From: a virus
Lineage: Duplodnaviria > Caudoviricetes
DNA: 61,797 bases
Direction: 5' to 3' (one strand)
IMG/VR virus record: IMGVR_UViG_3300044627_004557
Coordinates: 1-61,797 of that record
Shown here: positions 14,484-40,274 of the stretch, piece by piece
Layout: each line of letters opens with the position of its first letter
How positions within the stretch are numbered: position 1 is the stretch's first letter
Notes under the pieces: generated by a model
Told to the model about the DNA's origin: nothing
The model's input: only the letters and a program-made list of their open reading frames with translations
The model's database searches: none
Position numbers and translations under genes: made by a program

Positions 14484-14537
14484 TTTGTTTTTATTTTAAA
14501 TTGTTAATAATATTAATTCCGAAAGAAGGGCTGACGA

Positions 14538-18611: not shown

Positions 18612-18616
18612 ATTGC

Positions 18617-22013: not shown

Positions 22014-22022
22014 AGCTATGTT

Positions 22023-22220: not shown

Positions 22221-22231
22221 GGTTTGTTTAT

Positions 22232-22641: not shown

Positions 22642-22651
22642 TTTGTTTGGG

Positions 22652-22969: not shown

Positions 22970-22978
22970 CGGTTTGGA

Positions 22979-23173: not shown

Positions 23174-23222
23174 AGTTCATATTTAAAAGTCCTAAGTTAA
23201 GGAATAAAATCCACATTTGCAA

Positions 23223-23534
23223 CTACTCAAAGGAGTGAAACTTGACGTTGTTGTCTACTACTTTGTAAATCGTCATGTGCGATTCATCCTCAATCATCTG
23301 CACGATTCTTTGTGCAAACTCGTGGAGAGTTTCGTCATCGTACAGCTTGTCAACGGGCAGATGCATACCGGTCGGTAGTCCAAGCATGCTGAGAGGCAAC
23401 TTGGTTCCGTACGATGAGTGTCCCGAATAAAGGATGTGCTTGATGGAGCCTTCTACCAGGTTGGTCAGTAGGGTCATCTCCTCCCTGGCAGGGGAGAAGA
23501 GTTGAATGTGAACGATTTTGGTGATGTCTTTCAT
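23223..23534 (-). CDS. Hypothetical protein
   Basis: ORF in early operon. Confidence 0.55.
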   Translation of the reverse strand: MKDITKIVHIQLFSPAREEMTLLTNLVEGSIKHILYSGHSSYGTKLPLSMLGLPTGMHLPVDKLYDDETLHEFAQRIVQMIEDESHMTIYKVVDNNVKFHSFE

Positions 23535-23547
23535 TGTTAGGTTTGGT

Positions 23548-23799
23548 TTAAGGTTTAATTATGTTAATTGGTGAGCTTGTTTCTATGACAACCCTAGCGC
23601 CACACGACAGTAACGCCTTGGTGTCACAGCCCGATCCGGAATACACGACCCTACTTGGGCCAAGTATCTCAACCTCGTTGCAGTACGTGTTCTTTTTGCC
23701 CTGCTTGATGGTTATGACCGGTAAGTCAGTTCCATTTACTTTATTGGAGCGTATGTGGTGCTGATTGACGTGTATTCTAGTTAAAGATTGTTTAGACAT
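23548..23799 (-). CDS. Conserved small phage protein
   Basis: IHVNQHHIRSN..PVITIK..EVEILGPSRVVY..LSCGARVVIET. Confidence 0.7.
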   Translation of the reverse strand: MSKQSLTRIHVNQHHIRSNKVNGTDLPVITIKQGKKNTYCNEVEILGPSRVVYSGSGCDTKALLSCGARVVIETSSPINIIKP

Positions 23800-23818
23800 G
23801 GCTTTTAGTGGTGTTTAA

Positions 23819-24487
23819 TTAGGATATACGGACGATTTGACGCTGAAAGTCTTTGGAATTTTGCAACATTTCATCAAGCGATGAATAGGATGGATAATCT
23901 CCGTCGTGCAACCAATCGTGCAACGAGTATTGAGTTCCTTTAATCTTTAGCATACGATAATTGGTGCCATCCTCTAAGATTATGGTTGCCCAATCAGCCT
24001 TCGGCGTGATGAATGCAACGAAACACATTGCAGAGCCAATGTTTATTTCCCCAAACCTTGATTGTTTGTAATCAACTTTCTGAGTCTTTGTCTTGGAAAC
24101 AAAGTACGCCTTTATTTGCTTGGATTTAGTTGTGCTGGAAGAATGACGATGCTCTTTGTCCATCCAATCGTCTTTTAGTTCAAGCAACATTTGGTGGTTA
24201 CTCATGTTGGGATCTGCGTATTCCCTGCAAAGTTTCACATCAATGACCGACCCGAACTCTTTGGTGAACTCATTGATATCGGACAACACTTTCTCTCGGA
24301 ATAAAGAAAGCATGGCAGAGTTATGGAGGTTCATGTTGCGAGTAAACTCCTGCTTGTCATCTTCGCATTTGCGTACACTTGCAAGGGTGAATCGCCCATC
24401 CGTTTTCTTGGATGCGTCCTTCGCGTTGATGTTGTTGAACTCGCCAATGATTCCATCTACAAGTTCTTGTTGGGTTTTTGTTAGCAT
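23819..24487 (-). CDS. Hypothetical protein
   Basis: 222-aa ORF in early operon. Confidence 0.7.
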   Translation of the reverse strand: MLTKTQQELVDGIIGEFNNINAKDASKKTDGRFTLASVRKCEDDKQEFTRNMNLHNSAMLSLFREKVLSDINEFTKEFGSVIDVKLCREYADPNMSNHQMLLELKDDWMDKEHRHSSSTTKSKQIKAYFVSKTKTQKVDYKQSRFGEINIGSAMCFVAFITPKADWATIILEDGTNYRMLKIKGTQYSLHDWLHDGDYPSYSSLDEMLQNSKDFQRQIVRIS

Positions 24488-24506
24488 AATTGTTTTGATT
24501 TAAGGG

Positions 24507-24701
24507 TTAATATAAGTGATTCATAAGTGATTCATACACGAAACTTCCGTCCTTGTTGACTTCATCCAATTGCTCTTTGGTCATTGGCTTGCCATCGTAG
24601 TTTGCACTTATGATGAACGCATCGCAGAAATCGGGATAGTCCTCGGTGTCGATACCGTCAAACTCAATGTCGGATATCTTGGTGTAGTCTAAGGTTTTCA
24701 T
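24507..24701 (-). CDS. Small acidic phage protein
   Basis: IEFDGIDTEDYPDFCDAFIISA.YDG..MT.EQLDE. Confidence 0.7.
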   Translation of the reverse strand: MKTLDYTKISDIEFDGIDTEDYPDFCDAFIISANYDGKPMTKEQLDEVNKDGSFVYESLMNHLY

Positions 24702-24940
24702 AGTGTTTGTAGTTTTTGTGAGATTAAAGATAATGCACTCTGTAGTTCTATTTGTTCTTTTGTAACTTCCCTGAATCCAAACAAGACAAGGCGCTTGATT
24801 TGATTAAGAGTCAACTCATCAAGAGATTTTGCTTCTTTGCAATGACTTACAATGGTTTTTTTTGCTTCGGGCCATTGTTCTGACCGATCAAGTTCATCCC
24901 TGACGTGATCGGGTAGTGCTGAATAGAGATTCTTTTTCAT
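24698..24940 (-). CDS. Hypothetical protein
   Basis: ORF with an ATGA overlap. Confidence 0.55.
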   Translation of the reverse strand: MKKNLYSALPDHVRDELDRSEQWPEAKKTIVSHCKEAKSLDELTLNQIKRLVLFGFREVTKEQIELQSALSLISQKLQTL

Positions 24941-24952
24941 AATTGATTTAGT

Positions 24953-25549
24953 TTAAGGGTTAGTTTTTTGTGAGTCTCTGAAGTCTTGCAGGATGCTCTC
25001 TCTATCTCTCTCACTCATAAAGTGGAGGTGCTTGTCAATGAACTCCTGCTCGGTAAGTTCGTCATTGATGGCCCACTCTATGATGGACTCTACCTCACAC
25101 TCCATGTAGTCATCCGAATCCATAGCGTACTTGCCTTCGTGGTAATCCATCTGCACGTCTTCGCCAAGTTCTCCCGATGAGGCAGTCATCCAACCGGCAA
25201 AGTCATTGCCACATTCCTCGTACTCAAGCCGCACATCAACGCCGTATATTGCGGACAAGGCAAGGGCGAACGGAGTCGCGGGACTCCAAGCCGTGTCAAA
25301 ACTAACGGAGAATCCACCCAAATCGTCAGTCGGATTGAGGATGTGTTCGTCACCATTGATGTCCCACTTTGTGCCATAGGTAGCACAATTGTGGTTGTAC
25401 CAATCCTTCTCATCGAATTTAGGATTCCTACCGATGAGTGACTCAAAGACCCTGTTGTTTGATGGGTCTGAGAATTTTTCAGCAATTAAGCTGAGTTTTT
25501 CTGGCGTACCTCCCGATACGACTAGAAAGTTTGAGCACCAATTTGGCAT
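24953..25549 (-). CDS. DUF1281/YubB ferredoxin-like domain protein
   Basis: MPNWCSN, WYNHNCATYGTKWD, FDTAWSPA, YEECGNDFAG; start at ATG 25549. Confidence 0.75.
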   Translation of the reverse strand: MPNWCSNFLVVSGGTPEKLSLIAEKFSDPSNNRVFESLIGRNPKFDEKDWYNHNCATYGTKWDINGDEHILNPTDDLGGFSVSFDTAWSPATPFALALSAIYGVDVRLEYEECGNDFAGWMTASSGELGEDVQMDYHEGKYAMDSDDYMECEVESIIEWAINDELTEQEFIDKHLHFMSERDRESILQDFRDSQKTNP

Positions 25550-25562
25550 ATAAAAGTTGTTC

Positions 25563-25586
25563 GGTATATCTCCCGTCCCAGAGTTT
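25563..25586 (-). promoter_or_regulatory. 24-nt leader motif (second copy 29108-29131)
   Basis: ggtatatctccc(g/a)tccc(a/g)gagttt, 22/24 identical, both 13-14 nt upstream of an ATG. Confidence 0.6.
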
Positions 25587-26313
25587 AGTGTAGGTTGATT
25601 GTTACATTCTTCTTGCCCTTGCCCATCGTGCCGGAGCATAGGCCGCATTTGTCACAGGTTGATTTGTATCCCGCCTCCTTGGATGCAGGACATACGACCC
25701 CCGACACGGGGTCATCCGCCCCCTTGGATAGGAACGATCGATAATCCAACTGCTCCGCCAGGCCGACCTCCGACTCGGTGTGCACGGATGCCATAAACCA
25801 AGAGCCGTACTCCTTGGCCCAAGGCTTGGCCCATTGGTGGGTGTAGCCGGTCCATACCTTGGCCACACGAGCCATTTGAGAGACCAAGGCTGCATCCATA
25901 AGGCTTGGCTCACCATAGGTGCCAAAGCGGACATACGATGCGTCACAGAGGCTTACAATGCGTCTACGCTTATCGTCATCCAAGAGGGTTACATCTTGTG
26001 GTTTGATACGCCGTAGCGTGGACAGGAATCCGGAGTATTGCAGGGCCTTATGGGTGTAGCATCCCTGTGTGAGGGATTTGTCTTTGGCCCGTTGGTTGCC
26101 TGAGAAGGGGCAGTCAAGGCAACACGATGAGTCCAGGGCAAAGAACTCCTTCATCGTGAACTTCCTCCCCGAATTGGCTAGCCGGTACTGCTCAAGGCTG
26201 AAGGTGTAGGTCTGCACGATGTCCGCATTGGAGCCGGTGATCTTCTTGTTGGAAGACGGAGACTTGGATACGACAAACAGGTTGCCGCCATCCACATATA
26301 CTACTTTAGGCAT
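25585..26313 (-). CDS. Cys-rich Fe-S / radical-SAM-like phage protein (gp88-like)
   Basis: SSNKK, CLDCP..CY, VRFGTYGEP, WTGYTHQW, MASV, VCPA..TCDKCGLC. Confidence 0.6.
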   Translation of the reverse strand: MPKVVYVDGGNLFVVSKSPSSNKKITGSNADIVQTYTFSLEQYRLANSGRKFTMKEFFALDSSCCLDCPFSGNQRAKDKSLTQGCYTHKALQYSGFLSTLRRIKPQDVTLLDDDKRRRIVSLCDASYVRFGTYGEPSLMDAALVSQMARVAKVWTGYTHQWAKPWAKEYGSWFMASVHTESEVGLAEQLDYRSFLSKGADDPVSGVVCPASKEAGYKSTCDKCGLCSGTMGKGKKNVTINLH

Positions 26314-26316
26314 AGG

Positions 26317-26718
26317 TTATTGGGTTAAGTACTCGTTATACTCTTCAATCTCTGCAATGAGGGCGCTCCTCACTTTGTCCATGACCTTGGGGGACATCCT
26401 CTTCACCCCAAATTCTCTGCGTACCTGGTCTTTGTTCACGAAGATCCATCCAATCTGACCGCTATCAAATGGGCATGAGAACGGTTTATGACTGATGGTG
26501 ATTCCGCTATGGTCGTACATGTAGATGGGTAACATAAGGGCGATGTCGTGCACTCTGCGTAATGATTCTGCAAAGTGAGTGAATCCCCAATAATCCCCTG
26601 AATTGTAGGGGTTCCTGTCGCCAAGGATGTACCTACGATGGAAGCACAGCATGGTGCCGAGGTTCTCGTTCCACTCCCGTGGATTCATAATTTCGGTGGT
26701 TTCGGTTTCTTGATACAT
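26317..26718 (-). CDS. Conserved phage/MGE early protein
   Basis: NPREW.NLGTMLCFHRRYILGD, LPIYMYDHSGITIS..FSCPFDSGQIGWI. Confidence 0.7.
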   Translation of the reverse strand: MYQETETTEIMNPREWNENLGTMLCFHRRYILGDRNPYNSGDYWGFTHFAESLRRVHDIALMLPIYMYDHSGITISHKPFSCPFDSGQIGWIFVNKDQVRREFGVKRMSPKVMDKVRSALIAEIEEYNEYLTQ

Positions 26719-26752
26719 GATAATTGAGTTTATAGGGTTGAGGGTTGAGTGT

Positions 26753-26783
26753 AAAGAAAGGGGGAGGCTTTAATACCTCCCCC
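26753..26783 (-). terminator. Intrinsic terminator
   Basis: gggggagg-ctttaata-cctccccc with a U-rich tail on the minus strand. Confidence 0.7.
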
Positions 26784-26791
26784 ATTGATTG

Positions 26792-27763
26792 TTATTTAGA
26801 TGACTTCTTGGTTGGGATCAGTACCATCACGGGTGTGCCGTCTTCTGTCCCGTCTTGTACGAGTTCCCAGTTGTAATCGCTGTCAAGGTAGAACGATCGA
26901 TGGTGCGTCTCTGGGTTGCTGCTATTCTTCCTAACTTGAATGAAGCCGCCGGTGGCTGCAGTAAGTCCCAAGGATTTACAAACATCTTCTGAAACAATTC
27001 TTCTTTCCTGCCCGGATTTATTAGCATGCTCGGAGAAGTCAAAGTACTTGCTCTCCTCGGGGAAGCAGTCGGGGTGGTTCTTCTTGATCTTGGGTTTCCA
27101 AGTTGAACATGCTAATTCGTGCAGTCCACGGATGGCTTCGTCGGTAGTAGTTCCGTCCAACTTGAAGTGCTCGGATAGGTACGCCCTTTGCGGTGTAGTT
27201 GCTGCTTCGTAGTACTCGTTGAGTAACTCACGGGAGATTTGGATCTGTTTTGACATGGTTGTTTGGGTTTGGTTTGAGTTTGTGATTTGACGGAATTGTT
27301 TTAAGGTTATTTCTACAAATTGAGGATAATCATCAAGGCAGTTTGCGATGGAACCACCATAGTACTTGCTTTCGTCACGCGGATGGCCGGACACTAGGGT
27401 ATAACCAACTTGAAAACGGGTGTAGCGTTCATCTGCATTGCTTCTCCACCAAGCATAGAGTTCTTTAAAGTTTTCTTCTGTGGCTTCGATGCACCAGTGT
27501 TCAGGTTGTGTCATGGGTTGTGTGTTTGTGATTTGACGGAATTGTTCGAGGGTGATTTCTTGGTAGGATGGATGCCTTTCGGTAAGGCCTTCCTCGGGAC
27601 CGCCCCAATAATAACTTGAATCTGTTGGGTGCTCTGAAAGCAATATCCTTCCTTCTCTTAGGTCAGCCCATCCGCTTCCTTTAGTTTTCGTTCGCCACCA
27701 CGGCTGAAGTTCTGCGCAGTTCTCTTCGGTTACAGGGATGTACCATTTTTCTGGATGTTTCAT
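26792..27763 (-). CDS. Hypothetical protein with duplicated N-terminal domain
   Basis: Two copies of PE.W.I..TEEN..EL..WWR...EITL.QFRQITN, then a third domain. Confidence 0.7.
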   Translation of the reverse strand: MKHPEKWYIPVTEENCAELQPWWRTKTKGSGWADLREGRILLSEHPTDSSYYWGGPEEGLTERHPSYQEITLEQFRQITNTQPMTQPEHWCIEATEENFKELYAWWRSNADERYTRFQVGYTLVSGHPRDESKYYGGSIANCLDDYPQFVEITLKQFRQITNSNQTQTTMSKQIQISRELLNEYYEAATTPQRAYLSEHFKLDGTTTDEAIRGLHELACSTWKPKIKKNHPDCFPEESKYFDFSEHANKSGQERRIVSEDVCKSLGLTAATGGFIQVRKNSSNPETHHRSFYLDSDYNWELVQDGTEDGTPVMVLIPTKKSSK

Positions 27764-27770
27764 TTGATTT

Positions 27771-27800
27771 GGGTTTAGGGTTTAGGGTTTAGGGTTTAGG
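27771..27800 (+). repeat. (GGGTTTA)n heptamer tandem repeat, G-quadruplex-type motif
   Basis: gggtttagggtttagggtttagggtttagg, intergenic. Confidence 0.85.
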
Positions 27801-28247
27801 TTAGATTAGTCCTTCGTTTGCAAGGGATGTGTATCCGTCCGTGGTTAGGATTACATGGTCATGCAGTTTGATGTCAAGCATTGACAGTCCTTGCTTTACT
27901 TTCTTTGTCAAGTCTTTGTCCTGTTGCGATGGTTCTCTGTTTCCTGATGGGTGGTTGTGCACCAAAATTACGCTAGAACACAGGTCATCCACCGCGTACT
28001 TGGCGATGATCTTGGGGTCTGCCACCGTTCCCGATGTCCCACCTTGGGATATCTTGGCGTAGGATGTGACCATGCCGGCACGATTCAGCATCATGATGAA
28101 CATGGACTCGTAGAGTTCAATGTCCTCATGGTAGAATTGTCGGGCGAATCTTTCGGCATCGTCTGGGCTTTCTATCTTTACCCTCACAAAGGATGAAGGC
28201 TCGGATACACAGGTGATTTGGCGGGATTTTACATAGGTTGTTTTCAT
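27801..28247 (-). CDS. RadC-like JAB domain protein
   Basis: ESMFIMMLNRA..ISQGG..TVADP..ILVHNHPSGN..PS..D..T..LHDHVIL. Confidence 0.9.
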   Translation of the reverse strand: MKTTYVKSRQITCVSEPSSFVRVKIESPDDAERFARQFYHEDIELYESMFIMMLNRAGMVTSYAKISQGGTSGTVADPKIIAKYAVDDLCSSVILVHNHPSGNREPSQQDKDLTKKVKQGLSMLDIKLHDHVILTTDGYTSLANEGLI

Positions 28248-28269
28248 ATTGATGGGTTTAGGTTGATGG

Positions 28270-28509
28270 TTAAATTTTAGGGAGTTCGATATTGTGTTCT
28301 ATCCATTCTTGGATTTCGTCCACCTCTTCGGGCGTGAAGGATTCGTACATAAGTTTTGGGTCGTCAAATTCTACCGATGAACAATTGAATGCAGGGATGT
28401 CCTCATTCGTGTATTTGCCCGAGATTTCATGGCCGTCCACATTGATGCAGAAGCGAATGGTTATCTCTGCACGGACAATTTCTTGGAATTCTTTGCTGAT
28501 TTCTAACAT
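28270..28509 (-). CDS. Small acidic hypothetical protein
   Basis: First ORF after the early promoter at 28592-28622. Confidence 0.6.
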   Translation of the reverse strand: MLEISKEFQEIVRAEITIRFCINVDGHEISGKYTNEDIPAFNCSSVEFDDPKLMYESFTPEEVDEIQEWIEHNIELPKI

Positions 28510-28543
28510 ATTGATGGGGTTGAGTGGACGATGTTTGAATTGA

Positions 28544-28567
28544 AAAAGTACACTATAGTAGACTTTT
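28544..28567. promoter_or_regulatory. Near-palindromic operator-like site, copy 1 of 6
   Basis: aaaagtacactatagtagactttt; other copies at 29870-29890, 30161-30181, 30310-30332, 31702-31724 and 31762-31781 (core gtatactatagtagacttt). Confidence 0.75.
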
Positions 28568-28591
28568 TATTTGTTGTTGAATTCATTAATA

Positions 28592-28622
28592 CAAAGGTAC
28601 GGCTGATGTCTCATTGTACAAA
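28592..28622 (-). promoter_or_regulatory. Bacteroidota primary-sigma promoter (early)
   Basis: Minus strand TTTG-N19-TACCTTTG. Confidence 0.8.
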
Positions 28623-28628
28623 TAGCAT

Positions 28629-29093
28629 TTACCAAGATGAGCGATAATAGAAGTCACATTGGTTTTCGGGTTCCTCTTCAAGGACTTTCTCCAACATTTC
28701 TGCGGTTTCTTTGATGTCTTGGAAGTAGAACTCGTCGTAATCTGTTGACCCAAAGAAGCACCCTTCAACTGTTGGGAGTATCTCCGATGAGTGATCGGGC
28801 TTTGCGATTACTTGCCTGCATTCGTGCAGAAGGTCTCTAAGGTTGTCCCTTGACACAAAATACTCCTCGCAGTTGTCCATTCCGCCTTGGACATTTTCTA
28901 CAAACCACCGGTGGATTTGGTTTGACTTACGCCACGAGTGGATTTGCTCCTCAATGTAGGATACCCGTTCGGGCTTGATGTGTGGCACGTCTACGCCACC
29001 ACACTTGACGGTTACACTATGCCGTTTGTCGGGAGTCATATGGCTCCAATTTTGGACATAGGTTTTCTTGGATAGATACATGTCTAGTCCCAT
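28629..29093 (-). CDS. Conserved phage early protein
   Basis: MGLDMYL..WRKSNQIHRWFVENVQGG.DNC..LPT.EG.FFGSTDYDE.Y..FYYRSSW. Confidence 0.75.
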   Translation of the reverse strand: MGLDMYLSKKTYVQNWSHMTPDKRHSVTVKCGGVDVPHIKPERVSYIEEQIHSWRKSNQIHRWFVENVQGGMDNCEEYFVSRDNLRDLLHECRQVIAKPDHSSEILPTVEGCFFGSTDYDEFYFQDIKETAEMLEKVLEEEPENQCDFYYRSSW

Positions 29094-29139
29094 AGCAGAT
29101 TTTGTTTGGTATATCTCCCATCCCGGAGTTTGGTTTTGT

Positions 29140-29481
29140 TTAAGGGTTTTGGTGAAGTTCTGGAAATATAAATACTGTGCCTGGGTCGTACCATTCGGCA
29201 TGCCACCCATGTTTGGATAGCAGTTTCATAAACGACCTAAGGGTTCCTCCGTGGTAATTCTTGGATGAATCGTTGTAGTACGCAAATGCGGTTCTGCCTT
29301 TGTAGGTGTATCCGCATTCTCCACATAGCCAAATGCCGTTCTTCCACGCCTCAGTTATGTCTTTGCCCCAAAAGTCCTCCGTGGTACGGATTAGGGGTTT
29401 GTGCCGGTCATTTGGGTCTTCGGTTTGCAGGGATTCGGCCAATATGGCCATCATCGCTTCTCTTGTTTTGTTTAGGCTCAT
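29140..29481 (-). CDS. Hypothetical protein
   Basis: GIWLCGE..L.KHGWHAEWYDPGTV. Confidence 0.65.
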   Translation of the reverse strand: MSLNKTREAMMAILAESLQTEDPNDRHKPLIRTTEDFWGKDITEAWKNGIWLCGECGYTYKGRTAFAYYNDSSKNYHGGTLRSFMKLLSKHGWHAEWYDPGTVFIFPELHQNP

Positions 29482-29571
29482 GGCTTTAGGGATAAAGGGT
29501 TGTAAGGAATAGGAATGCTCGCGTTAATGCATACAGACCAAGGATGCCGAGTGCGGCAACAAACAAGGTCT

Positions 29572-29844
29572 TTAGGATTTCTCTACTTGGCATCTCTTTT
29601 CGGTTTTTAGTATTGAGTTGAGTTCCTTTTTGATTCGCCTTGCATCATCGCCTCGCCAAGTTTGTGCATTGCTCAAGAAATACAGGACAATAGAGTCTCC
29701 GGAGTCAAGGCCGTAGTCGTCATAAACTGAATTCAGACTACGCATTGCATCAATGTATGGCACAGCACCAAAATAGGGGTTAGGCCAAGTCCTACGAATT
29801 TCTGCGGCTATTTCGTAGAGGGGTCTTTGGGATTGATTTGACAT
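29572..29844 (-). CDS. Conserved small phage early protein
   Basis: RPLYEIAAEIRRTW..PYFGAVPYIDAM..YGLDSG.SIVLYFLSNA.TWRG..ARRIKKEL. Confidence 0.75.
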   Translation of the reverse strand: MSNQSQRPLYEIAAEIRRTWPNPYFGAVPYIDAMRSLNSVYDDYGLDSGDSIVLYFLSNAQTWRGDDARRIKKELNSILKTEKRCQVEKS

Positions 29845-29891
29845 GGTTTTTGAGTTGGTTTAGTGAATTAGTATACTATAGTAGACTTTTA

Positions 29892-30104
29892 TCATTGAGA
29901 AACACGAATGAATTCTGATGTCTGATTGCTGAAGCGGTGTTTCCTACGCTCCTTCCTTGATGAAACCCATTTAGGGTCTACCATTGGGATGGCCTCAAAC
30001 AAGGCCTTTGGCTTTTGCCTCAAGTACTTTGTTTCGCCTCTTTGCAGATAATTTTCTGCAAGCCTTTTATCCTTTATGCAAGGATGGTCAACTAAATAAA
30101 ACAT
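29892..30104 (-). CDS. Small basic hypothetical protein
   Basis: ATG at 30104, downstream of the promoter at 30217-30247. Confidence 0.45.
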   Translation of the reverse strand: MFYLVDHPCIKDKRLAENYLQRGETKYLRQKPKALFEAIPMVDPKWVSSRKERRKHRFSNQTSEFIRVSQ

Positions 30105-30216
30105 ATGTGGTTGATTTTGTTTTTGCCTACTTGGTATTGGCATCAGCATTCCAAATGAATAGTATACTATAGTAGACTTTTTTGATAGCATCTCTATGGT
30201 GTAGCATTCAATAATA

Positions 30217-30247
30217 CAAAGATAGGCAAGTTTTCCCATTTGACAAA
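30217..30247 (-). promoter_or_regulatory. Bacteroidota primary-sigma promoter (early)
   Basis: Minus strand TTTG-N19-TATCTTTG; upstream TAAATGCTATTTG is shared with the 28592 promoter. Confidence 0.8.
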
Positions 30248-30488
30248 TAGCATTTACTGTTCAACGGAACGCATCGCATTGGTTCGCCACTCCTTGCGAG
30301 ATTTATTCAAAAAGTATACTATAGTAGACTTTCCCGGTTTTGTTTTGTTACGCTGCATCGCACCGCATCGCATATGATAGTGATAGTGACTTTTTTTCTG
30401 TACTCGATCGAGTTTTACGAATGAGTGCCAGGGAACAACAATGTGTTATGAAGGCAATTAGTTCGTATTGTGTTACGAAAGTATGGGC

Positions 30489-30518
30489 AAAAAAAAACCC
30501 CTTGCTTTCGCAAGGGGT
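30489..30518 (-). terminator. Intrinsic terminator after the first early gene
   Basis: accccttgc-tttc-gcaaggggt with an A-run on plus (U tail on minus). Confidence 0.85.
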
Positions 30519-30528
30519 CTGTAACACA

Positions 30529-31356
30529 TTATGCGTGATTTTTTATGCTTTGTGTTACGAGTTCACGCTGAGGTTTTGTTAATTTAATGTTACCATAGTC
30601 TGTAATCCACTTCTTGGACTTTGTATCCAAGTAATGTGTTACGCCAAATGGCTGATGCCTTTTAGCATCCAACAGGATGGTAGGCATAACATTAGTTACA
30701 TTTTTCAAGAACTCTTGCAGTTCGGTGGGTTCAATGTTATGTAGTTCGGTAACATATCCGCCTTTGTTATGTTTGGATATTGTTATACCTTGACCTTTGT
30801 ATAACATATTAAACACAACCTCCTTGGCTTCGTTCTCTTTTGTCTCTTGCTCTTGCTCTAATTGTCTATCGTGAGACTCCAAAGCATCCGTAACATTAGA
30901 CGAATTATCGTCGTCTTTTGGTTCGGTTTCTTTATTGTCTTTTGTTTTACCACTACAAAAATCGTTAAAAGTAGTGGCATCCATAACATATTCCGTAGGT
31001 GATTCTGCGTTCAATGTTATAAATTGACCCACTTTTTCGGGGTTATTTTTAACATATTTCCCCATAGTGGCGAGGCGATAGAAATAGGCTTTGCCCATAT
31101 TAAATGTAACACTAATTACATCCTCCATCGTAACATCAATCTTTTTCTTCTTTCGTAACTCTTTACACTCCGCAGAGTTAAAATAGACACGGAAATCGTA
31201 ACACAATTTGGATAGTTCCACCAATTTTAAGAAACGATTGTGCCTAATGTTACGAAGTTCTGTTAGTAACTTTTTAACATCAGAAAATTTCACGATGTTA
31301 CGAACCGAAGGCAAAGCAACAAACAAAGAAACGGCATTCAAAACTGACTTATTCAT
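30529..31356 (-). CDS. First early gene, hypothetical protein
   Basis: 275-aa ORF between the promoter at 31583-31613 and the terminator at 30489-30518. Confidence 0.75.
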   Translation of the reverse strand: MNKSVLNAVSLFVALPSVRNIVKFSDVKKLLTELRNIRHNRFLKLVELSKLCYDFRVYFNSAECKELRKKKKIDVTMEDVISVTFNMGKAYFYRLATMGKYVKNNPEKVGQFITLNAESPTEYVMDATTFNDFCSGKTKDNKETEPKDDDNSSNVTDALESHDRQLEQEQETKENEAKEVVFNMLYKGQGITISKHNKGGYVTELHNIEPTELQEFLKNVTNVMPTILLDAKRHQPFGVTHYLDTKSKKWITDYGNIKLTKPQRELVTQSIKNHA

Positions 31357-31582
31357 AACAATATATATTTTGTGTTATGTTTTTGTGCAATGTTATGAGG
31401 ATTTGCACATATCCGATTTATGCATTGTTATGGGAATGCATACCCACAGTCAATCCGAAAAAAGCATAACACAACTTTTTTGTGAGAACATTACTCACAT
31501 TGTGTTATTTAATTTTTCAATAAGTCAAAGAACGAATCGTCGTAACACATTACGCATCCCTGCGACCTTTACTAACGATATA

Positions 31583-31613
31583 CAAATATACAAAAGAAAT
31601 TTGATATTACAAA
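31583..31613 (-). promoter_or_regulatory. Bacteroidota primary-sigma promoter (early)
   Basis: Minus strand TTTG-N19-TATATTTG, with GCTA before the TTTG as in the other two early promoters. Confidence 0.8.
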
Positions 31614-32987
31614 TAGCCATACAATGCAGTAAAGGGACATTTTGGCTAACAGTTTACCGACACGATGTGAGATGTGTTATGGATTACTTGTTTTTGATTG
31701 GAAAAGTATACTATAGTAGACTTTATGTAGAATGTGTTACGAAAATTGCCTATCAGCAAAGGTATACTATAGTAGACTTTTTGTAGAATGTGTTATGAAA
31801 TGTAGCAAAACCCTGGATTTGCTATATGCCCACGATAGTGAATTTGTTGTTACAACAATGATTTATTTTTTCCGTATTACCTACAAGCACTAATAATTGT
31901 GTAATATGTTATAGAATAGTGTAGCAATAAAAACCTTTGGTAATTTTTGGGTGTATCGTAACACATTGTTTTGCATTAGAGTTTTTGGAAGGTGTATCGT
32001 TTTGTTATAACAACATAAAATTCAGCCACATACACAAAATCATTTGTTACAAAAATGATGTGTTATGAGTAATCCTGTTTTTCCAATAAAAATATGAGAT
32101 GAAAAATCACAATGTGTTATGAATACACCTGGACTCAGTACAAAGTCGTTTTGTTATAACACAACCATTTGTAAAACAATATGGATTTGGTAAAAGATGT
32201 GTTATGAAAAGATGTGTTACACAATTAGATAAATGATGTGTTACACGGATGAGATAAAACTTGTGTTACAAAACAAGACATCCTGTGCAATCATTGGTTT
32301 TGTTATAACACAACCACTTACCGAACGAACGATTTTTACTTTTCATAACAATGCTAACCAAAATAATGTGTTATAACAATGCGAGTTAGTCATCATTATT
32401 TTTGCTCAAAAATAAAAATAGGTTTTATATATTTTTAGTCATTAGAAAAATAATGTGTTGTAACAATGCTATGATAAACAATATGTTATAACACAACCAC
32501 TTTTTGTATCCAATAAATTTATTGTAGCAATTATTCATAACATTGATTACAATTTTATCGTATCATTAGACGAGCAATAGCATTGTTATATAACACATCA
32601 TTGTTTTTTTGTCATCATTTTTTTTTGGAATAAAAATCAATCATTGTTATAACATTGCCTAATTGTGCCTGTTGTTTTAACAAATGATACACTAAATGTA
32701 GTAGAGCAAAACTAAATATATTGTTGTAACAACAGATTGACTAATGGATTGTTTATTCAATGTTACGAATAGGGGGGGACGACTTTCATTTTTGAAACTG
32801 AACTAGAAAAATTAGGGGTAAAGCCCAAAATTCCATCCATACAATGTTCAAAATTCCATCCATAGGGATCCCTATTTTGAACAGGGAGTGCTATATCTAT
32901 ATTATTATATAGAGGGAAATTAGGGGGGTACCAAAAAAGTGCCCTAGCGATATCAAAAACAGCGTTTTTTATTGACATATAATTCAC

Positions 32988-33032
32988 AATGTGGCCAAAT
33001 TCACCAAAAATGTGGCCAAATTCACCACATTT
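32988..33032 (+). repeat. Iteron-like 19-bp direct repeat pair (21-bp period)
   Basis: aatgtggccaaattcacca at 32988-33006 and 33009-33027; also inverted aaatgtgg/ccacattt. Confidence 0.85.
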
Positions 33033-33071
33033 GTAAGAACATTTGGGGTAAAAAAGGGTTACTTTTACGAT

Positions 33072-33524
33072 ATGGCAAAGTTTTTAAGGAAGAGGCAGCT
33101 TGTGGATACTCAAACGGGGGAGGAATTCCTTTCGGATGAGCGTATTAGTGTTTTAGGGAGGTCTGCATGGGACAGGGCGAGGTTTGTAAAGATGTTTATT
33201 CCCGGGTTGGAGGCTTTGGTTAGGCTAAAGCCATCGGAGATCGCCTTGGCTATGTACGTTATGACCAGGCTGAAGAGTGGTTCCAGGGTGGTTCAGGTGG
33301 AGTTTCAGGGGTATTGTGAGTGGGTGGAGCCTATTGTGGGGAAGAAGCCTGATCGATCTTCGTACCACAAGGCGGTTAAGGGGTTGGTTGGCGAGGGCTG
33401 GATGGCGAAGTCCGGGAAGGAGTGGTTGATTAACCACAACATGGCTTTTGTTGGCGATAGGGGGAGGCATTTGGTTTCAAGCACGGTCTCTTTGGTGCGT
33501 TCAAACGAAACTATTGAGCCCTAG
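33072..33524 (+). CDS. RepL-like winged-helix DNA-binding/replication protein
   Basis: LVDTQTGE, FVKMF, RSSYHKAVKGLV.EGW..K...WLINHNMAFVGDR fit the RepL family pattern; ATG at 33072. Confidence 0.6.
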   Translation: MAKFLRKRQLVDTQTGEEFLSDERISVLGRSAWDRARFVKMFIPGLEALVRLKPSEIALAMYVMTRLKSGSRVVQVEFQGYCEWVEPIVGKKPDRSSYHKAVKGLVGEGWMAKSGKEWLINHNMAFVGDRGRHLVSSTVSLVRSNETIEP

Positions 33525-33532
33525 GGCGGTTA
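33508..33532 (+). promoter_or_regulatory. Putative ECF-sigma promoter AAAC-N17-GTTA
   Basis: Lies 7 nt before the ATG at 33540. Confidence 0.45.
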
Positions 33533-33539
33533 TAGGGGC

Positions 33540-33779
33540 ATGAACATGAACATCGTTATGTCGTATCCGGGTATCATCGTGGAGATGATGGAGGATTACT
33601 ACGAGTCCGGGAAGGATTTTGAGGAAATAAAGTACGATCATGCAAGGTATTTTATAGAGAAAAACTATTATCTTTACAGAGACCTTGTGTCAAAGGACTT
33701 GGCTTTTTATGAAAAAGCCTTTAACTTGATGACTACAAGGGGGGACTACAAAGACAAAATACTTACCAATGAAAGATGA
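33540..33779 (+). CDS. Hypothetical protein
   Basis: ORF in operon. Confidence 0.55.
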   Translation: MNMNIVMSYPGIIVEMMEDYYESGKDFEEIKYDHARYFIEKNYYLYRDLVSKDLAFYEKAFNLMTTRGDYKDKILTNER

Positions 33780-35686: not shown

Positions 35687-36169
35687 ATGCTATTTAAAAT
35701 AAGTCAAGAGGATGTCTTTGATGACAATCCTCATTTGTCCATACTCACAGAGTTTAAGGGCATAACATCGGACGAGTTCAAGTTCGTAGCCTTGTACGCG
35801 GATTGGAAGTCCCCCTACAAGAATCTATCCCCCGAGGAGCGTTACCAAAAAGCACTCCTCAACGTGTCTTCAGTCCGCAAGGACAAGATCGGTAAGTACA
35901 TTGAAGCATACCACGACATGCAGGGCATTGGTTCGGAGAGAGAGTCCCTGGAGGCTCTGGAGGCAGCCCTGTCCGAAATACGCAAAAGACTCAAAGGTGC
36001 CCAAGGCTTAGAGGCCGACGAGATTAAGAAGCTTTCCGCATCGCTCATTGACCTGACCAAACAACGCAAAGCCATTGAAATCATGATTAACACGGAGATG
36101 AACATGGACATACAGAAGGATTCTTCGGCCGAGGACGAGATGTCCGCCATTGACAGCTTTCACGCATGA
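35687..36169 (+). CDS. Putative terminase small subunit
   Basis: Helical 160-aa ORF (FVALYADWKSPY..L...ER) directly upstream of, and overlapping, the large terminase. Confidence 0.55.
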   Translation: MLFKISQEDVFDDNPHLSILTEFKGITSDEFKFVALYADWKSPYKNLSPEERYQKALLNVSSVRKDKIGKYIEAYHDMQGIGSERESLEALEAALSEIRKRLKGAQGLEADEIKKLSASLIDLTKQRKAIEIMINTEMNMDIQKDSSAEDEMSAIDSFHA

Positions 36170-38052
36170 AGCAAAGCCTGGTTGATTACCTTTTCAACAG
36201 CGCCTTTGACGTCAACGAGAGGGTCAGGTACTACTTGGACAAGATTGGACAAATACAGATGTCCACTTACAAGCCCAAGAAGATGATTATTCCTTCGTTT
36301 TCCAGCCGGACCGAGCAGTCCAAATGGGAGAACGAACAGATACGCAGGACGAGGTTTGGGCATGATGGCATCTGCGGGATGATGTACATGTACACCTACT
36401 TCTGGAAGATGAAGTCCAAGAACGGGGGGCTTATTTCCCCGGAGTTTCGAAGGTGCAACGCGGAGTTCTTCAACCTTATTGAGTCTTGCCTGTACGGCGA
36501 GTCAAGCCTCTACCCGGACAATACCAGTAGTGGCGTCATCCTTGGTGGACGGCGCCGTTGGGGCAAGTCCTACAGCCTTGCCAACGCGATGTACTGCACG
36601 GCGATCCATAATCCCTATTCGGAGATTGGTTTCACATCCAAGTCAGAGGAGGACATGAAGAAGTTTATGAGCGACGTACTGAAGACCGGCTACAACAACC
36701 TGCCGTCTTTCCTGCGCGCTACATCTATGGCCGGTAACTCGGCATCGCGCCTAGAGTTCGCCAAGAAGATTCGCGACAAGGATGGCAACATCAAGAAGGT
36801 TGGGCTTAACTCGGTCATCTTTGGTCGTTCGCCTGAGCCAACGTCGTTTGAGGGATCCGGTATGCGCATGGTGGTGTACGAGGAGCCCGGTAAGTGGGAC
36901 CCAGGTCAGCTCAAGCAGAATTGGTCCTATACAGAGCCGGCTTTGGCAGCGGATGACGGTATTACCCGGAAGGGCGTTCCCATCCTGGCCGGTACGGCGG
37001 GAGATGCTGCAGAGAATGGCGATGACTTCAAGGACTTTTGGTACAACGCGGAGGGCTACGGCCTTATCCGCTACTTTGCTGCCGGCTGGAGCGGGTTCAT
37101 GATTGACAACGAGCTAGGCAACGAGAACGTCATTGAGGGGCTGAAATACATCCTTAGTGAGCGTGAGAAGAAGCGTAAGCAGTCCATGAAGCGGTATTAC
37201 GACTTTATCGTTCAGTACCCCTTGGAGGCTGAGGAAATGTTCATCCAGGTGGGTGATTCGCCTTTTGACGTGGAGTTGATTAACAACCGGATCGCGCACT
37301 TGGACACCCATCCACCCAAGATGAAGAGGGGTCTGTTCCGTAAATCCAACGACAAGGTGGTATTCATTCCCAAGGAAGACGGGGACGTCATCATGTTGGA
37401 GGAACCCTCTGACGACGTTCAGTATGCCGCCGGGTGTGACCCGACGGATGGCGCCAAGAAAGAAGGCATTGGCTCGGACCTGTCGTTCTTTATCGCGAAG
37501 GGGCTGCACTTGGGGGAAGAAGAGACGCACAGCGGTGGTGCCGTATTGCAGTATACAGCCAAGCCCAAGGACATGAACGAGGCTTACGAGCAATGCGCCC
37601 TGGCGGTGGAGTACTACAGCAAGAAGAACACCTGCACGGTGTTGATTGAAAGAAACAGAGCCCGAATGATATCCTACTTCCAGGATAGGGACTTGACGAA
37701 GTTTCTGGCGAAAAAGCCACCCAAGATTGGCAAATTAGCCAGACCGGGGAATGTCATAGAATACGGGGTCTACATGGACGAAATGGTTAAGGATCAGATG
37801 ATTGGCGTTATTGACGATGACTTGACATCCAACATTGAACACTACCAATACTCTGATTTGCTGTCGGATTTGGCCAATTACAACCCAGAAAACAAAAAAA
37901 GAAAATATGACCGAGTAGATGCTTGGGGTCTTACCTTGATTAATTTACGAACGGTAGCCAAAAGTCGTTTGTTAAGAAAAGAGACAAGCAATGACCTATT
38001 CAAGGGATTTGACTATGTTTTCAGTAAGGAGGGAAAACTACAACGTAAATGA
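36166..38052 (+). CDS. terL: Terminase large subunit
   Basis: Walker A GGRRRWGKSY, Walker B MVVYEEPG, GTAG, and RNase H-like nuclease YAAGCDP..LIERN..DRVDA. Confidence 0.9.
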   Translation: MKQSLVDYLFNSAFDVNERVRYYLDKIGQIQMSTYKPKKMIIPSFSSRTEQSKWENEQIRRTRFGHDGICGMMYMYTYFWKMKSKNGGLISPEFRRCNAEFFNLIESCLYGESSLYPDNTSSGVILGGRRRWGKSYSLANAMYCTAIHNPYSEIGFTSKSEEDMKKFMSDVLKTGYNNLPSFLRATSMAGNSASRLEFAKKIRDKDGNIKKVGLNSVIFGRSPEPTSFEGSGMRMVVYEEPGKWDPGQLKQNWSYTEPALAADDGITRKGVPILAGTAGDAAENGDDFKDFWYNAEGYGLIRYFAAGWSGFMIDNELGNENVIEGLKYILSEREKKRKQSMKRYYDFIVQYPLEAEEMFIQVGDSPFDVELINNRIAHLDTHPPKMKRGLFRKSNDKVVFIPKEDGDVIMLEEPSDDVQYAAGCDPTDGAKKEGIGSDLSFFIAKGLHLGEEETHSGGAVLQYTAKPKDMNEAYEQCALAVEYYSKKNTCTVLIERNRARMISYFQDRDLTKFLAKKPPKIGKLARPGNVIEYGVYMDEMVKDQMIGVIDDDLTSNIEHYQYSDLLSDLANYNPENKKRKYDRVDAWGLTLINLRTVAKSRLLRKETSNDLFKGFDYVFSKEGKLQRK

Positions 38053-40274
38053 GCGCTACCGCAATACAAACAACTTTCCCCAATATGTGGGTCCAAGACT
38101 CGCAGAAGGGGGAAGATTATCACAAGCAAGCCATCTTGGCTATTCTTGGGCAGACGGTGGCGAACGGTTACATTCCCAACCTTTACACAGCCATGGACCG
38201 GTCTATGAACTTCTACAATGGAGACTACGACCTTTCCAAGAAGTTTGACTTCCTGCAGAAGGATTACAACGGCCGAAGTCTTCCGGCATTGTGGATTAAC
38301 TTCAACAAGATCCGCAACAAGGTCAACCTCCTAGAAGGGGAGGTGGCTATTCAGAAGCTGGACGTATCGTGTAAGACACTAAATCGTGATGCTGTATCTA
38401 GGAAGATGAAGAAGAAATCTTCCATTGTAGCACAAAAGATTATGATGTCTGTCATTCCAAAGATTGACCCGACAGGCGAACTTATTGAGATGAAAGAGCC
38501 GGATTTTATTCCGTACTCTGAAGAAGAATTGGACCTCTACATGCGTTCCTCTTACAAGGAACCCATTGAGCGCACCATGGACTCCATCTTGCGCTATGAG
38601 ATTGAGAGGGATAAATACGTGCAGACCAGGCTTGCCTTTTGGAGGGACATCCTGATAACCGGCCGGGCTATTGGTAAGCACGAGCTCAAGTATGGAAAGC
38701 CGCACATCCGTCGTGTGGACCCGCGCTATGTCATCGTGGATCCTTACGTCTTTGACGACAGCTTTAGCACATCGGCATTTATTGGAGAATGGCGCTACGC
38801 TCCGGTTACGGAGGTCTGCGACACCTATGGCTTGACGCTTGAGGAGTTGAATACGATAAGGTACGACCAAGGTTCTTGGCTATGGGGCGGTTATTCGCAG
38901 AACGGAACGAACTTCTTGTTGCCTTACATCACCGTGAACAATCAGTTTATGTGCTTGGTGTTTTACGCGGAGTGGAGGGACATTCGCCAGGTACGCGCCA
39001 AGGTAACCGTGGACCAATATGGCGGTGAGCATGTCAAGATCCTCGGGAAAGACGAAAGACCAAAGTTGACGGAAAAGGAGAAGGAGAATGGAGGACGCAT
39101 TGAAACAAGGAATGTTGAGACAATTCGCAAGGCGACCCTTGTGGGGTCTAGCATTGTGAAGGAATGGGGCGAGATGAATAACATCGTTAGGGATAGCGTC
39201 GACAATCCGGTGAAAGCCGAGTACAGTTACACGATTATCTCCCCGCAGTACACCAACTTTAGGACTGTGTCCAAGGTTGAGGAGATGTCCGCTCTGCAGG
39301 AGTTCAAGGACCTAATTATGTACACCGTGCAACAAGAGATGTCCACGGCAGGGCGTAAAGGTTTTGTCTACGATCTTCGCTACAAGCCAGACAACCTGCA
39401 ATTGCAGGATGTGATGTACTACCTAAAGACATCCGGTATTGCCTTTACGAGTAGCGGGCAGGAAGCGGTACCGCCCAATGGTAACCCATTCCCAAGCATT
39501 GACACAGGTATCTCCAATTCAATTAACCTATACCTCAACTTGGCGTCATACATCGATATGGAGATCGACAAGATTTCTGGAATCAACGACGCTCGCCAAG
39601 GCTTTCAAAAAGGGGATTCTCTTGTTGGAGTGAATCAGATGGCGGTTATGCAAAGCAGTCTTATTACTCAGCCGTTGAACAAAGCGTTTGAGATTTTTGA
39701 GAATGAATTATTGCAGAAATACGCCAACTACATTAAGACGATTTTCCCATTCTTAAAAGAACAATATGAGCCAATTGTCTCGCAAATCGGCATTGACCTT
39801 ATGGAGATTGATGAAGATGTACCTCTTCAGGATTATGGTATTTTTATCAAGGTTAACTCCGATGATATTATGAACAATAGGCCGAAGTTCGAGCAACTTG
39901 TTAGTTCCGCCGTACAGGCTAACAGCCTAAGTATTTCCGAGGCTATGGTTCTTTTATTCAATCCAGACACCAAAGAGGGCGTCAAGAAGTTCCTTGCACT
40001 CCAAGACCGAAAAGCATCTCAAGCGGAACAATCGCAAGAACAGCAAATGATGATGCAACAACAGATGGCTCAACAGCAAATCATTGGAGATACTGAGAAA
40101 CAAATTCAAGTTGATAGGGCTCGTTCCGAGAACAAAGGACAACTCCAAATGTTAAGGGAGGAGTTAAAGAATCGTACGATGGAGCAACAAACTCAACTTG
40201 ATATGCTCAAAAAAGAGCAAGAACAGAACTTCAACCTCATCATTGAGGCATTAAAAGAACAAAAAACCCAATAA
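38049..40274 (+). CDS. Portal protein
   Basis: Follows terL; INFNKIRNKVNLLEGE, RRVDP, ISGINDARQG, Q-rich C-terminal coiled coil (barrel). Confidence 0.85.
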   Translation: MSATAIQTTFPNMWVQDSQKGEDYHKQAILAILGQTVANGYIPNLYTAMDRSMNFYNGDYDLSKKFDFLQKDYNGRSLPALWINFNKIRNKVNLLEGEVAIQKLDVSCKTLNRDAVSRKMKKKSSIVAQKIMMSVIPKIDPTGELIEMKEPDFIPYSEEELDLYMRSSYKEPIERTMDSILRYEIERDKYVQTRLAFWRDILITGRAIGKHELKYGKPHIRRVDPRYVIVDPYVFDDSFSTSAFIGEWRYAPVTEVCDTYGLTLEELNTIRYDQGSWLWGGYSQNGTNFLLPYITVNNQFMCLVFYAEWRDIRQVRAKVTVDQYGGEHVKILGKDERPKLTEKEKENGGRIETRNVETIRKATLVGSSIVKEWGEMNNIVRDSVDNPVKAEYSYTIISPQYTNFRTVSKVEEMSALQEFKDLIMYTVQQEMSTAGRKGFVYDLRYKPDNLQLQDVMYYLKTSGIAFTSSGQEAVPPNGNPFPSIDTGISNSINLYLNLASYIDMEIDKISGINDARQGFQKGDSLVGVNQMAVMQSSLITQPLNKAFEIFENELLQKYANYIKTIFPFLKEQYEPIVSQIGIDLMEIDEDVPLQDYGIFIKVNSDDIMNNRPKFEQLVSSAVQANSLSISEAMVLLFNPDTKEGVKKFLALQDRKASQAEQSQEQQMMMQQQMAQQQIIGDTEKQIQVDRARSENKGQLQMLREELKNRTMEQQTQLDMLKKEQEQNFNLIIEALKEQKTQ

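Follow-up and report, generated by a model that had tools for sequence, protein, structure and literature searches.

A 2.3-kb block of a phage genome in which one short word recurs some 65 times, in both orientations and straight through a protein-coding gene, raises the question of what the word is for and which molecule reads it. The block is located at 30440-32766 of the IMG/VR virus record IMGVR_UViG_3300044627_004557 (61,797 bp), which was analysed over its full length and is called the window here. The record is classed 'linear' and has a CheckV completeness estimate of 59%; it is possibly incomplete. The word is TGTTAY, with the core TGTTA or, on the opposite strand, TAACA, and the gene inside the field encodes an orphan protein of 275 amino acids, P0001. 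The field is a real, selected array of cis-acting sites, coupled to an orphan protein family and conserved as a variable cassette of gene and array across a group of environmental crAss-like phages. We consider it likely that the array provides about 65 sites for a sequence-specific phage protein, probably P0001. It works like an iteron or operator array, and we do not claim membership in any named family.

The region 30440-32766 contains 37 copies of TGTTA and 28 of TAACA, giving 65 cores (27.9/kb), the very number that the original prediction had reached by hand; the remaining 59.5 kb contains 49 and 45 copies, respectively (94 in total, 1.6/kb). All six perfect TGTTATAACA palindromes of the window, 11 of its 12 copies of ATGTGTTAY and all four copies of RTAACACAT are inside the field, as had been seen for the palindromes and the longer word. 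For a regional GC content of 0.321, Markov models that were trained on this region expect 9.8, 15.7 and 19.7 copies at orders 0, 1 and 2 (z = 17.9, 12.7 and 9.9), and the largest counts in 300 simulations were 20, 29 and 32. The claimed excess over chance thus holds under composition-matched models (10-20 copies expected, z 10-18). The 49 copies expected by a self-trained model of order 3 reflect that the motif is already contained in a model of that order; with training on the remainder of the window, 3.5-4.3 copies are expected in the field. Outside the field the core is mildly depleted (93 copies against 116-128 expected, z -2.1 to -3.4). The GC content of about 30% given in the prediction is right for the field, whereas the window as a whole has 44%. 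A 17-nt weight matrix built from the field sites has the consensus (A/T)T(G/A/T)TGTTAY(G/A)A, and 61 of its 76 hits of at least 9 bits fall within 30200-32800. All top-ranked words in an unbiased scan of the window for clustered k-mers are pieces of the TGTTAY motif. The program TRF reports solely short, weak arrays in the field (2-3.8 copies, scores up to 86). A tandem repeat and a CRISPR array were both rejected, as had been done from inspection, since TRF and the spacing analysis reveal no regular head-to-tail or repeat-spacer units. An exact 15-mer scan of viral contigs gave 67 stretches, mostly chance matches; the real clusters belong to this species and to one other contig, L061, alone.

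The TGTTAY cores are under purifying selection. The region 30200-33100 was aligned with four contigs of the same species (P0001 94-99% identical), all of which keep the field. In the non-coding part, 3 of 204 motif columns are variable as compared to 136 of 1206 spacer columns (Fisher p = 7e-7); in the P0001 gene, the figures are 5 of 106 motif columns and 116 of 722 other columns (Fisher p = 1e-3). The gene has been recoded at both the synonymous and the amino acid levels, with the protein sequence bent towards the TGTTAY word. About 20 copies had been placed inside it and 21 are counted, against 5.8 ± 2.1 expected on synonymous resampling with the codon usage of the window (the check that had been proposed), 10.0 ± 2.3 when its own codons are permuted among synonymous positions and 4.2 ± 1.9 when the codon order is shuffled. 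None of the 2000 resamples reached 21 cores in any of the three tests. The dipeptide VT (GTnACn) occurs 7 times in P0001, with 0.9 expected.

P0001 is the product of a real conserved gene, with homologues at 80% and 66% identity and 13 representatives in a library of 1.8 billion proteins. In the family, the first ~110 residues are conserved and the C-terminal half is variable. The AlphaFold2 model of P0001 shows an all-helical N-domain, with a predicted local distance difference test score (pLDDT) of 95 over residues 1-135. A Foldseek search of BFVD retrieved four unnamed viral proteins and nothing else, a profile search of PDB sequences gave no match, and neither did tblastn against 50,697 phage records, Cellulophaga phage phi14:2 included. 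Isolated weak matches to HTH_17, HTH_31, Cro and an excisionase regulator are seen among 15 family members. A feature search of a protein atlas yielded no more than leads, namely a cluster with DUF3102 in 16% of it and a Borrelia PF49 cluster that scored 0.91; the same atlas gave nothing for the neighbouring open reading frame (ORF) of 323 amino acids. As no family or fold match was obtained, we infer DNA binding by P0001 from its context and not from homology. A predicted complex of P0001 with the primase-helicase (7146-9011) scored 0.20 against a mark of 0.32, which is no evidence either way.

The gene is a monocistronic unit that sits with its own terminator inside the array. From left to right, the field and its borders are built as follows.

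30444-32765, unstranded: full extent of the TGTTAY field; of its 65 cores, 37 are on the plus strand and 28 on the minus strand.
30495-30520, minus strand: intrinsic terminator of P0001, an 11-bp stem followed by a T-run.
30529-31356, minus strand: orphan gene of P0001 (275 amino acids) embedded in the field, 21 cores, 10 sense and 11 antisense.
31357-31700, unstranded: proximal leader and promoter zone of P0001, 8 cores.
31702-31800, minus strand: two 43-nt units, each consisting of the 22-mer early-promoter-like element AAAGTCTACTATAGTATACTTT abutting a long-form site TTTCRTAACACATTCTACA (gene orientation).
31999-32654, unstranded: palindrome zone with six perfect TGTTATAACA, one TGTTATATAACA, four 23-mers and single sites between them.
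32392-32491, unstranded: AT-rich segment, a candidate unwinding element, with palindromic sites on both flanks.
32772-32928, plus strand: distal boundary of the field, G7 at 32772-32778 and G6 at 32923-32928.
32988-33027, plus strand: 21-bp unit AATGTGGCCAAATTCACCA twice in tandem, where the structural arm begins; present in the related locus L080 too.

The boundaries agree with those described in the original prediction: the first core (30444) lies past the terminator, and the last (32761) is followed by the G7 run at 32772, the G6 run at 32923 and the switch in gene strand. Three cores (30444, 30471 and 30522) surround the terminator. The sites occur as monomers, perfect palindromes and direct pairs, in both orientations. 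The perfect palindromes start at 32003, 32152, 32301, 32369, 32484 and 32645, and the single copy of TGTTATATAACA, a palindrome with a 2-bp spacer, at 32584, so that the palindrome spacers in the field are 0 (6 copies) or 2 (1 copy). The 23-mer GTTTTGTTATAACACAACCAnTT is found four times in the palindrome zone, at spacings of 149, 149 and 183 bp. Duplex stability in the window is lowest over the 100 bp from 32392, at -107.2 kcal/mol, which is 3.7 standard deviations below the mean of -134.8 (standard deviation 7.5). Five of the seven least stable 100-bp windows fall in the field, as does the lowest GC content of the window (0.27-0.30). Single sites to the left of the AT-rich segment number 16 plus and 6 minus, and those to the right 1 plus and 4 minus, a weak trend towards strand asymmetry (one-sided hypergeometric p ~0.05, by hand). 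The near-palindromic 22-mer AAAGTCTACTATAGTATACTTT occurs six times in the window (28545, 29868, 30159, 30311, 31703 and 31759), always in the orientation of the leftward genes, with the two field copies at 31703-31724 and 31759-31780. Where a gene start is annotated, the 22-mer lies 24-72 nt upstream of it, and it recurs before many genes of the related locus L079; its placement suggests that it is probably an early promoter element of this phage group. The AATGTGGCCAAATTCACCA pair borders the field, outside it, and is probably an operator of the rightward arm. In RNA library X24, the contig of greatest depth (33.2) within the 20-kb stretch covered spans 32619-33211, from the field's right edge across both G-runs and the AATGTGGCCAAATTCACCA pair up to the start of the first plus-strand gene; it is possibly an abundant early or non-coding transcript.

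Analogous fields had been anticipated in relatives, and arrays are present there, some with other motifs. The loci were searched with the single proteins P0005 and P0012 as queries. Two loci of the P0005 type, L079 and L080, carry a 39%-identical homologue of P0001 inside a TGTTAY field, with the same word. In L080, about 13 long-form sites TTTCRTAACACATCTTACA with a period of ~49 bp lie upstream of the gene on the opposite strand, palindromes lie further out, and a C-run (in gene orientation) at the distal edge of the field matches the G-run of the window. The L080 gene has 16 copies of the core against 7.6 expected by synonymous permutation, and 0 of 2000 permutations reached 16. Core positions are only partly common to the window and L080 genes; density, not position, has been retained between them.

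Homologues of the P0012 type (20-25% identity) were found at 15 loci. One conserved non-coding module recurs wherever the upstream sequence reaches at least 650 bp, which is the case for 13 loci (L082-L095, -800 to -230 of the gene). Its order is a G-run GGGTGGGGG, a T-rich box TTTTTGGCGTTTT, the repeat array, a 16-bp palindrome GTGTCTTCAAAGACAC and the gene; the G-run is part of a C-run/G-run hairpin at the array edge. These arrays measure 116-292 bp and consist of lineage-specific short repeats, often in steps of ~11-12 bp, with the words CTACAGC, CCCGCT, CTGCCT, CTGCTG, GCACCG, CCCTGC, CCCCGT, CCTGTGT and CGCTCCC. The distance from the palindrome to the gene is ~230-300 bp (595 bp in L095). 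In L082 the array word AGGCAG also occurs inside the gene (8 copies against 0.45 expected); most other loci show no such enrichment. The T-rich box and the 16-bp palindrome were not found in the window or in L080, and the array of the window lineage is AT-rich and about ten times longer. The module shared across the relatives indicates that the conserved unit is a P0001-family gene together with a fast-changing repeat array. Three of the parent records that bear the module, of 60-64 kb, are complete (CheckV 100%) and have repeats of 123-127 bp at both ends of the contig. Matches to the type III hammerhead ribozyme (40.5-50.1 bits, two of them above the gathering score of 48.5) are present in the early arm of distant relatives, downstream of the homologous gene (L094, 6651-6704 and 7715-7769; L088, 7613-7667; L089, 7697-7751; L091, 10736-10790); none was found in the window. 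The unrelated viral contig L061 has, at 6631-7060, nine TTGTTATAACA sites within 350 bp, three within and six upstream of an ORF of 81 amino acids that was judged from its sequence to be a ribbon-helix-helix protein. It thus has the same palindrome and the same layout, with sites inside the gene of the binder, in a different protein family.

Judged by its genes, the window phage is a distant crAss-like phage. The ORF of 1606 amino acids at 45819-50639 matches the Crassvirus muzzle protein (Pfam crAss_MUZ, PF25731, E = 2.7e-49), and the large terminase TerL (36166-38052) and the portal (38049-40274) match PHROG 6681 and PHROG 6547, respectively. TerL matched 62 phage records by tblastn, of which the best 25 are all crAss-type at 21-25% identity. 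Near-identical DNA is present in 18 lake-water metagenome runs. Leftward genes, on the minus strand, extend from 31356 to 77, and rightward genes, on the plus strand, from 32991 to 60823; the field thus lies at the divergent junction where an early/replication arm meets a structural arm. The early/replication arm includes genes for a primase-helicase, a Rad52-like protein, a PDDEXK protein, an extracytoplasmic function (ECF) sigma factor, a DnaA domain-IV protein, RadC and methyltransferases. The minus-strand early genes at 22000-31000 have positive plus-strand GC skew (C-rich coding strand), and the minus-strand genes at 1-17 kb show the opposite. Each of three tandem units at 14537-14656 contains a small palindrome TATACCCGAnnGCGTATA and a box TTTTTGCGTTTTT that resembles the T-rich box of the distant relatives. 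At 27169-27835, next to the RadC-like gene (27801-28247), there is a widely shared or hypervariable element: the summed contig depth of this bin in DNA run X9 is 8114 as compared to 9-25 elsewhere, several runs show a concentration of loose ends and joints at 27771-27801, near 28.2 kb two IMG/VR contigs of the window species terminate, and CCTAAACC occurs five times within 27.5-28.5 kb. The plus-strand ORF of 2524 amino acids at 53249-60823 has no Pfam or family match and no D[FYLIVM]DxD (DxDxD) motif and is for these reasons not called a virion RNA polymerase; the DxDxD virion RNA polymerase expected of crAss-like phages is not evident in the window, from a record that is possibly incomplete. 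No Rfam family and no tRNA were found in the window. The TGTTAY motif had also been linked to the GTTA -10 element of the late promoters. GAAC-N17/18-GTTA does precede five plus-strand genes (33037, 34124, 35655, 42862 and 44340), and a gene for an ECF-type sigma factor is located at 10626-11216 on the minus strand (Sigma70_r2 and r4_2); these elements are likely to be the middle/late promoters of the phage itself. None of the 18 matches to GAAC-N15-19-GTTA in the window lies within 30440-32766, and the field is therefore not an ECF-type promoter array.

Enrichment, selection on the cores, recoding of the gene, linkage of gene and array and low duplex stability form the basis of a reading in which P0001 acts on its own locus. 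TGTTAY half-sites would bind P0001 monomers, TGTTATAACA palindromes would bind dimers, and direct pairs one helical turn apart would make the long-form sites. Covering 2.3 kb of the divergent junction, P0001 would form a large nucleoprotein complex around the AT-rich segment 32392-32491, and this complex would serve as an origin of replication or as a region for initiator loading. Autoregulation or copy control would come from the sites that lie over the gene and next to the two early-promoter-like elements. Since long-form sites abut both field copies of the 22-mer, autoregulation by P0001 is likely whatever the other role of the field. The occurrence of both orientations and of perfect palindromes indicates recognition of double-stranded DNA. 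The full statement, that the P0001 array is an iteron-type origin or initiator-loading region with autoregulation, is put forward tentatively, at somewhat less than even confidence.

Origins located inside the gene of their own initiator are those of lambda O and P1 repL. An origin is favoured here because of these precedents, the lowest GC content and duplex stability, the sites flanking an AT-rich core, the junction position beside the first gene of the replication arm and the skew switch near the module in the three complete relatives. The field has the multiple repeated sites of an origin (65 cores) and an adjacent AT-rich, low-stability segment flanked by palindromes. As for a cognate gene, P0001 is embedded in the array and its homologues co-occur with arrays in relatives; it has no similarity to any Rep family. 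In all three complete relatives, GC skew switches from minus to plus within ~1 kb of the module. In passages of PMC10983915, the origin of Carjivirus communis predicted by Ori-Finder is placed at the junction of opposed gene blocks, upstream of repL, and the P1 case is also described there; a passage of PMC12386605 gives an Ori-Finder origin at the corresponding junction position for the zeta crAss-like phage Lera.

Several observations weigh against such an origin. The skew switch of the relatives is inseparable from the switch in gene strand, and the cumulative GC-skew minimum of the window is at ~21-22 kb, 10 kb to the left of the field. The field sites of the window show no dominant spacing and no helical phasing. 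To our knowledge, 65 sites in 2.3 kb far exceed the classical iteron origins. P0001 has 0 matches in Pfam, PHROGs and NCBIfam, and thus none to a known initiator or DNA-binding family, and Foldseek against the PDB gave nothing significant for the full-length or the N-domain model. DnaA boxes (consensus TTATCCACA, at most one mismatch) number 11 in the window against 17 expected, with 0 in the field, and no DnaA-box cluster was found in the window. The protein of 165 amino acids encoded at 18168-18665 (minus strand), with the helix-turn-helix of DnaA C-terminal domain IV (PF08299, E = 1.4e-17), is an alternative candidate binder of the field. A second origin or operator candidate is the set of three tandem 40-bp units (14537-14656), which lies between genes of the replication arm, in a gap of 150 bp.

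The same layout could be that of a transcriptional control hub, with P0001 as an early regulator, repressing or activating, and with its operators spread over its own promoters, leader and gene as well as the inter-arm region, for early shut-off or an early-to-late switch. A regulator gene beside its operators at a divergent junction is the classical arrangement of phage immunity. Long-form sites abut both field 22-mers, and likewise in L080; P0001 is monocistronic, with its own terminator inside the array; the TTGTTATAACA sites of L061 lie upstream of and inside a putative ribbon-helix-helix gene; and the weak helix-turn-helix, Cro and excisionase-regulator matches occur in single members of the P0001 family. 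However, promoter-like elements are touched by 2-3 of the 65 sites, 30 sites and all palindromes are 0.1-1 kb upstream of such elements, the other four 22-mers of the early arm are mostly without sites, and the AT-rich centre with its flanking palindromes is left unexplained. We regard the hub as unlikely, while giving it appreciable weight. It is distinctly unlikely, in our judgement, that the cassette is something else again: an orphan DNA-binding protein of new fold with a fast-evolving cognate repeat array, at the two-arm junction of an environmental crAss-like phage family, expanded here into a 2.3-kb super-array that includes its own gene and nucleates a very large nucleoprotein body, neither classical origin nor operator. 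Such a body might, for instance, be a hub for organising or tethering the genome, or might determine incompatibility or exclusion when relatives co-infect. A centromere or episome-maintenance element, that is, a partition or tethering site of the parC, sopC or Epstein–Barr virus (EBV) FR type with P0001 as centromere-binding protein in a carrier or plasmid-like state, seems improbable to us. Adaptor-bound plasmid centromeres are short-repeat arrays with direct and inverted units, and the ~49-bp period of the L080 array resembles the sopC type. P1 ParB-DNA structures, which rank 3rd, 8th and 11th in a non-significant Foldseek list (E ~0.2-0.4), and the Borrelia PF49 partition cluster of the atlas search serve as leads only, and a phage-plasmid lifestyle is proposed for the prototypic crAssphage in a passage of PMC10983915. 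These structural and atlas similarities are below significance, however, and P0001 has no ParB, ribbon-helix-helix or TubR family match. A Walker-A expression matched three open frames of at least 90 amino acids in the window, TerL being the sole credible gene and a partner nucleoside triphosphatase (NTPase) not appearing, and ParA, ParM and TubZ families are absent among the 36 ORFs searched in Pfam; because the window may be incomplete, the missing NTPase is weak evidence.

A transcribed non-coding locus or promoter array, in which an abundant early RNA is made and the motif acts in initiation or in the RNA, would account for the four contigs of RNA library X24 (from a 92-95% identical strain) over 31156-33770, at depths of 8.4-33.2 as compared to ~4-6 over the capsid genes, and for a contig of X19 over ~31.3-31.5 kb. 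In phi14:2, a non-coding region of 1.7 kb close to where the early arm begins is transcribed above most genes, according to passages of bioRxiv 10.1101/2020.03.07.982082; it is without comparable motif density. Contig depth cannot rank expression and DNA carry-over is possible, and the RNA libraries X19 and X20 have no contigs over 31838-33171, a gap that in itself proves nothing. Both orientations and perfect palindromes point to double-stranded DNA, and the field gave neither an Rfam nor a GAAC-N15-19-GTTA match. We regard this reading as very unlikely. The original prediction had favoured a genome terminus, pac region or first-injected end, with an array loading a packaging, shielding or translocation protein. 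Its generic part, a cis-acting array that loads a protein, is supported by core conservation, site forms, recoding and relatives; the terminus is not, and we now give it hardly more than a slight chance. The field is 3.4 kb upstream of the large terminase gene, short-repeat arrays flank the termini of some phages, e.g., T7, and contigs of relatives break within ~600 bp of the homologous gene at 7 of 21 loci. Those breaks are on both sides of the gene and at inconsistent positions, as would arise from repeats or strain variation. All three placeable same-species contigs (the window, L010 and L011) read through the field; L008 and L009 cover the P0001 gene and 6 kb upstream and end ~2.3 kb downstream of the gene, near 28.2 kb. 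The two ends of the window have no common repeat, the DNA run shows no coverage step in its contig depths (terminus and coverage evidence come from contigs, not raw reads), and the module is at 18.5, 11.4 and 0.5 kb in the complete relatives, i.e., at arbitrary positions; their 123-127-bp end repeats appear to be assembly overlap. The other role proposed, that of a decoy or sink for a host factor (a regulator or defence sensor) with TGTTA-type half-sites as its target, is highly unlikely. TGTTATAACA turns up in papers on Zur boxes, the Zur half-site is TGTTAT, and TGTTAY is rare outside the field. Zur was the one candidate tested, and a Zur sink is unlikely because the 7-1-7 spacing it needs (TGTTA-N5-TAACA) occurs 0 times in the field; the different lineage-specific repeats at the corresponding place fit a co-evolving phage protein better than a conserved host factor. 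Irregular spacing and weak tandem traces would suit a by-product without function, generated in an AT-rich spacer as repeats expanded or slipped, but cores are 7-fold better conserved than spacers and the motif is enriched at synonymous sites of a conserved coding gene in two lineages. Core conservation and coding-gene enrichment largely refute the by-product, which is barely credible.

The P0001 array, read as a binding array and candidate origin, resembles the lambda origin (gene O) and P1 repL in that the repeated sites of a phage protein lie partly in its own gene, near an AT-rich meltable segment and in the early/replication arm. Lambda has 4 iterons of ~19 bp, whereas the field has ~65 sites with a core of 5-6 bp over 2.3 kb in both orientations; moreover, no similarity of P0001 to O, RepL or any Rep was detected, and the replication role of the field is putative. 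The core origin of simian virus 40 (SV40) and oriP of EBV also combine a short word (GAGGC) or palindromes in both orientations, an AT-rich tract and many copies of one viral protein, and the FR array of EBV also serves maintenance. These are eukaryotic viruses with unrelated proteins and far fewer core-origin sites, and the analogy is one of design alone. The omega heptads of pSM19035, parC-ParR of R1 and sopC of F share many short direct and inverted repeats over promoters, cooperative binding and dual regulatory and structural roles, the likeness to sopC belonging to the L080 array with its ~49-bp period. In contrast to these centromere arrays, no partner NTPase gene was found here, P0001 is not recognisably a ribbon-helix-helix or ParB protein, and the array runs through coding sequence. 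With Carjivirus communis and Lera, the locus has in common the predicted origin position, at the junction of opposed blocks and immediately before the first replication-arm gene, as given in passages of the two papers. It differs in that their origins are Ori-Finder predictions and that the first gene is annotated RepL there and is the orphan P0001 here; the word 'iteron' is absent from the main text of PMC10983915 and PMC12386605, and the passages concerned describe no motif field. The crAss-like Cellulophaga phage phi14:2 likewise has a non-coding region of >1.5 kb near the start of its early arm, but a dense repeated word was not found there and P0001 has no tblastn match in it.

In the literature outside supplementary files, we found no description of such a field in crAss-like phages and nothing relevant on iterons, or on intergenic repeats as replication origins, in crAss-like phages or Crassvirales. 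These phages are among the most abundant known, and their origins, early regulation and persistence are largely unmapped; in the passages of the papers considered, the published crAss-like origins are software predictions. The locus described here offers a concrete pair, one orphan protein and one short word, with strong signals of selection. It comes with a natural comparative series, consisting of a 39%-identity relative that uses the same word and thirteen distant relatives that use other words in a conserved frame. If P0001 binds the array, it would represent a new DNA-binding fold and would give a handle on replication or regulation in this phage group; it would also be a clear case of a coding gene shaped by carrying the binding sites of its own product.

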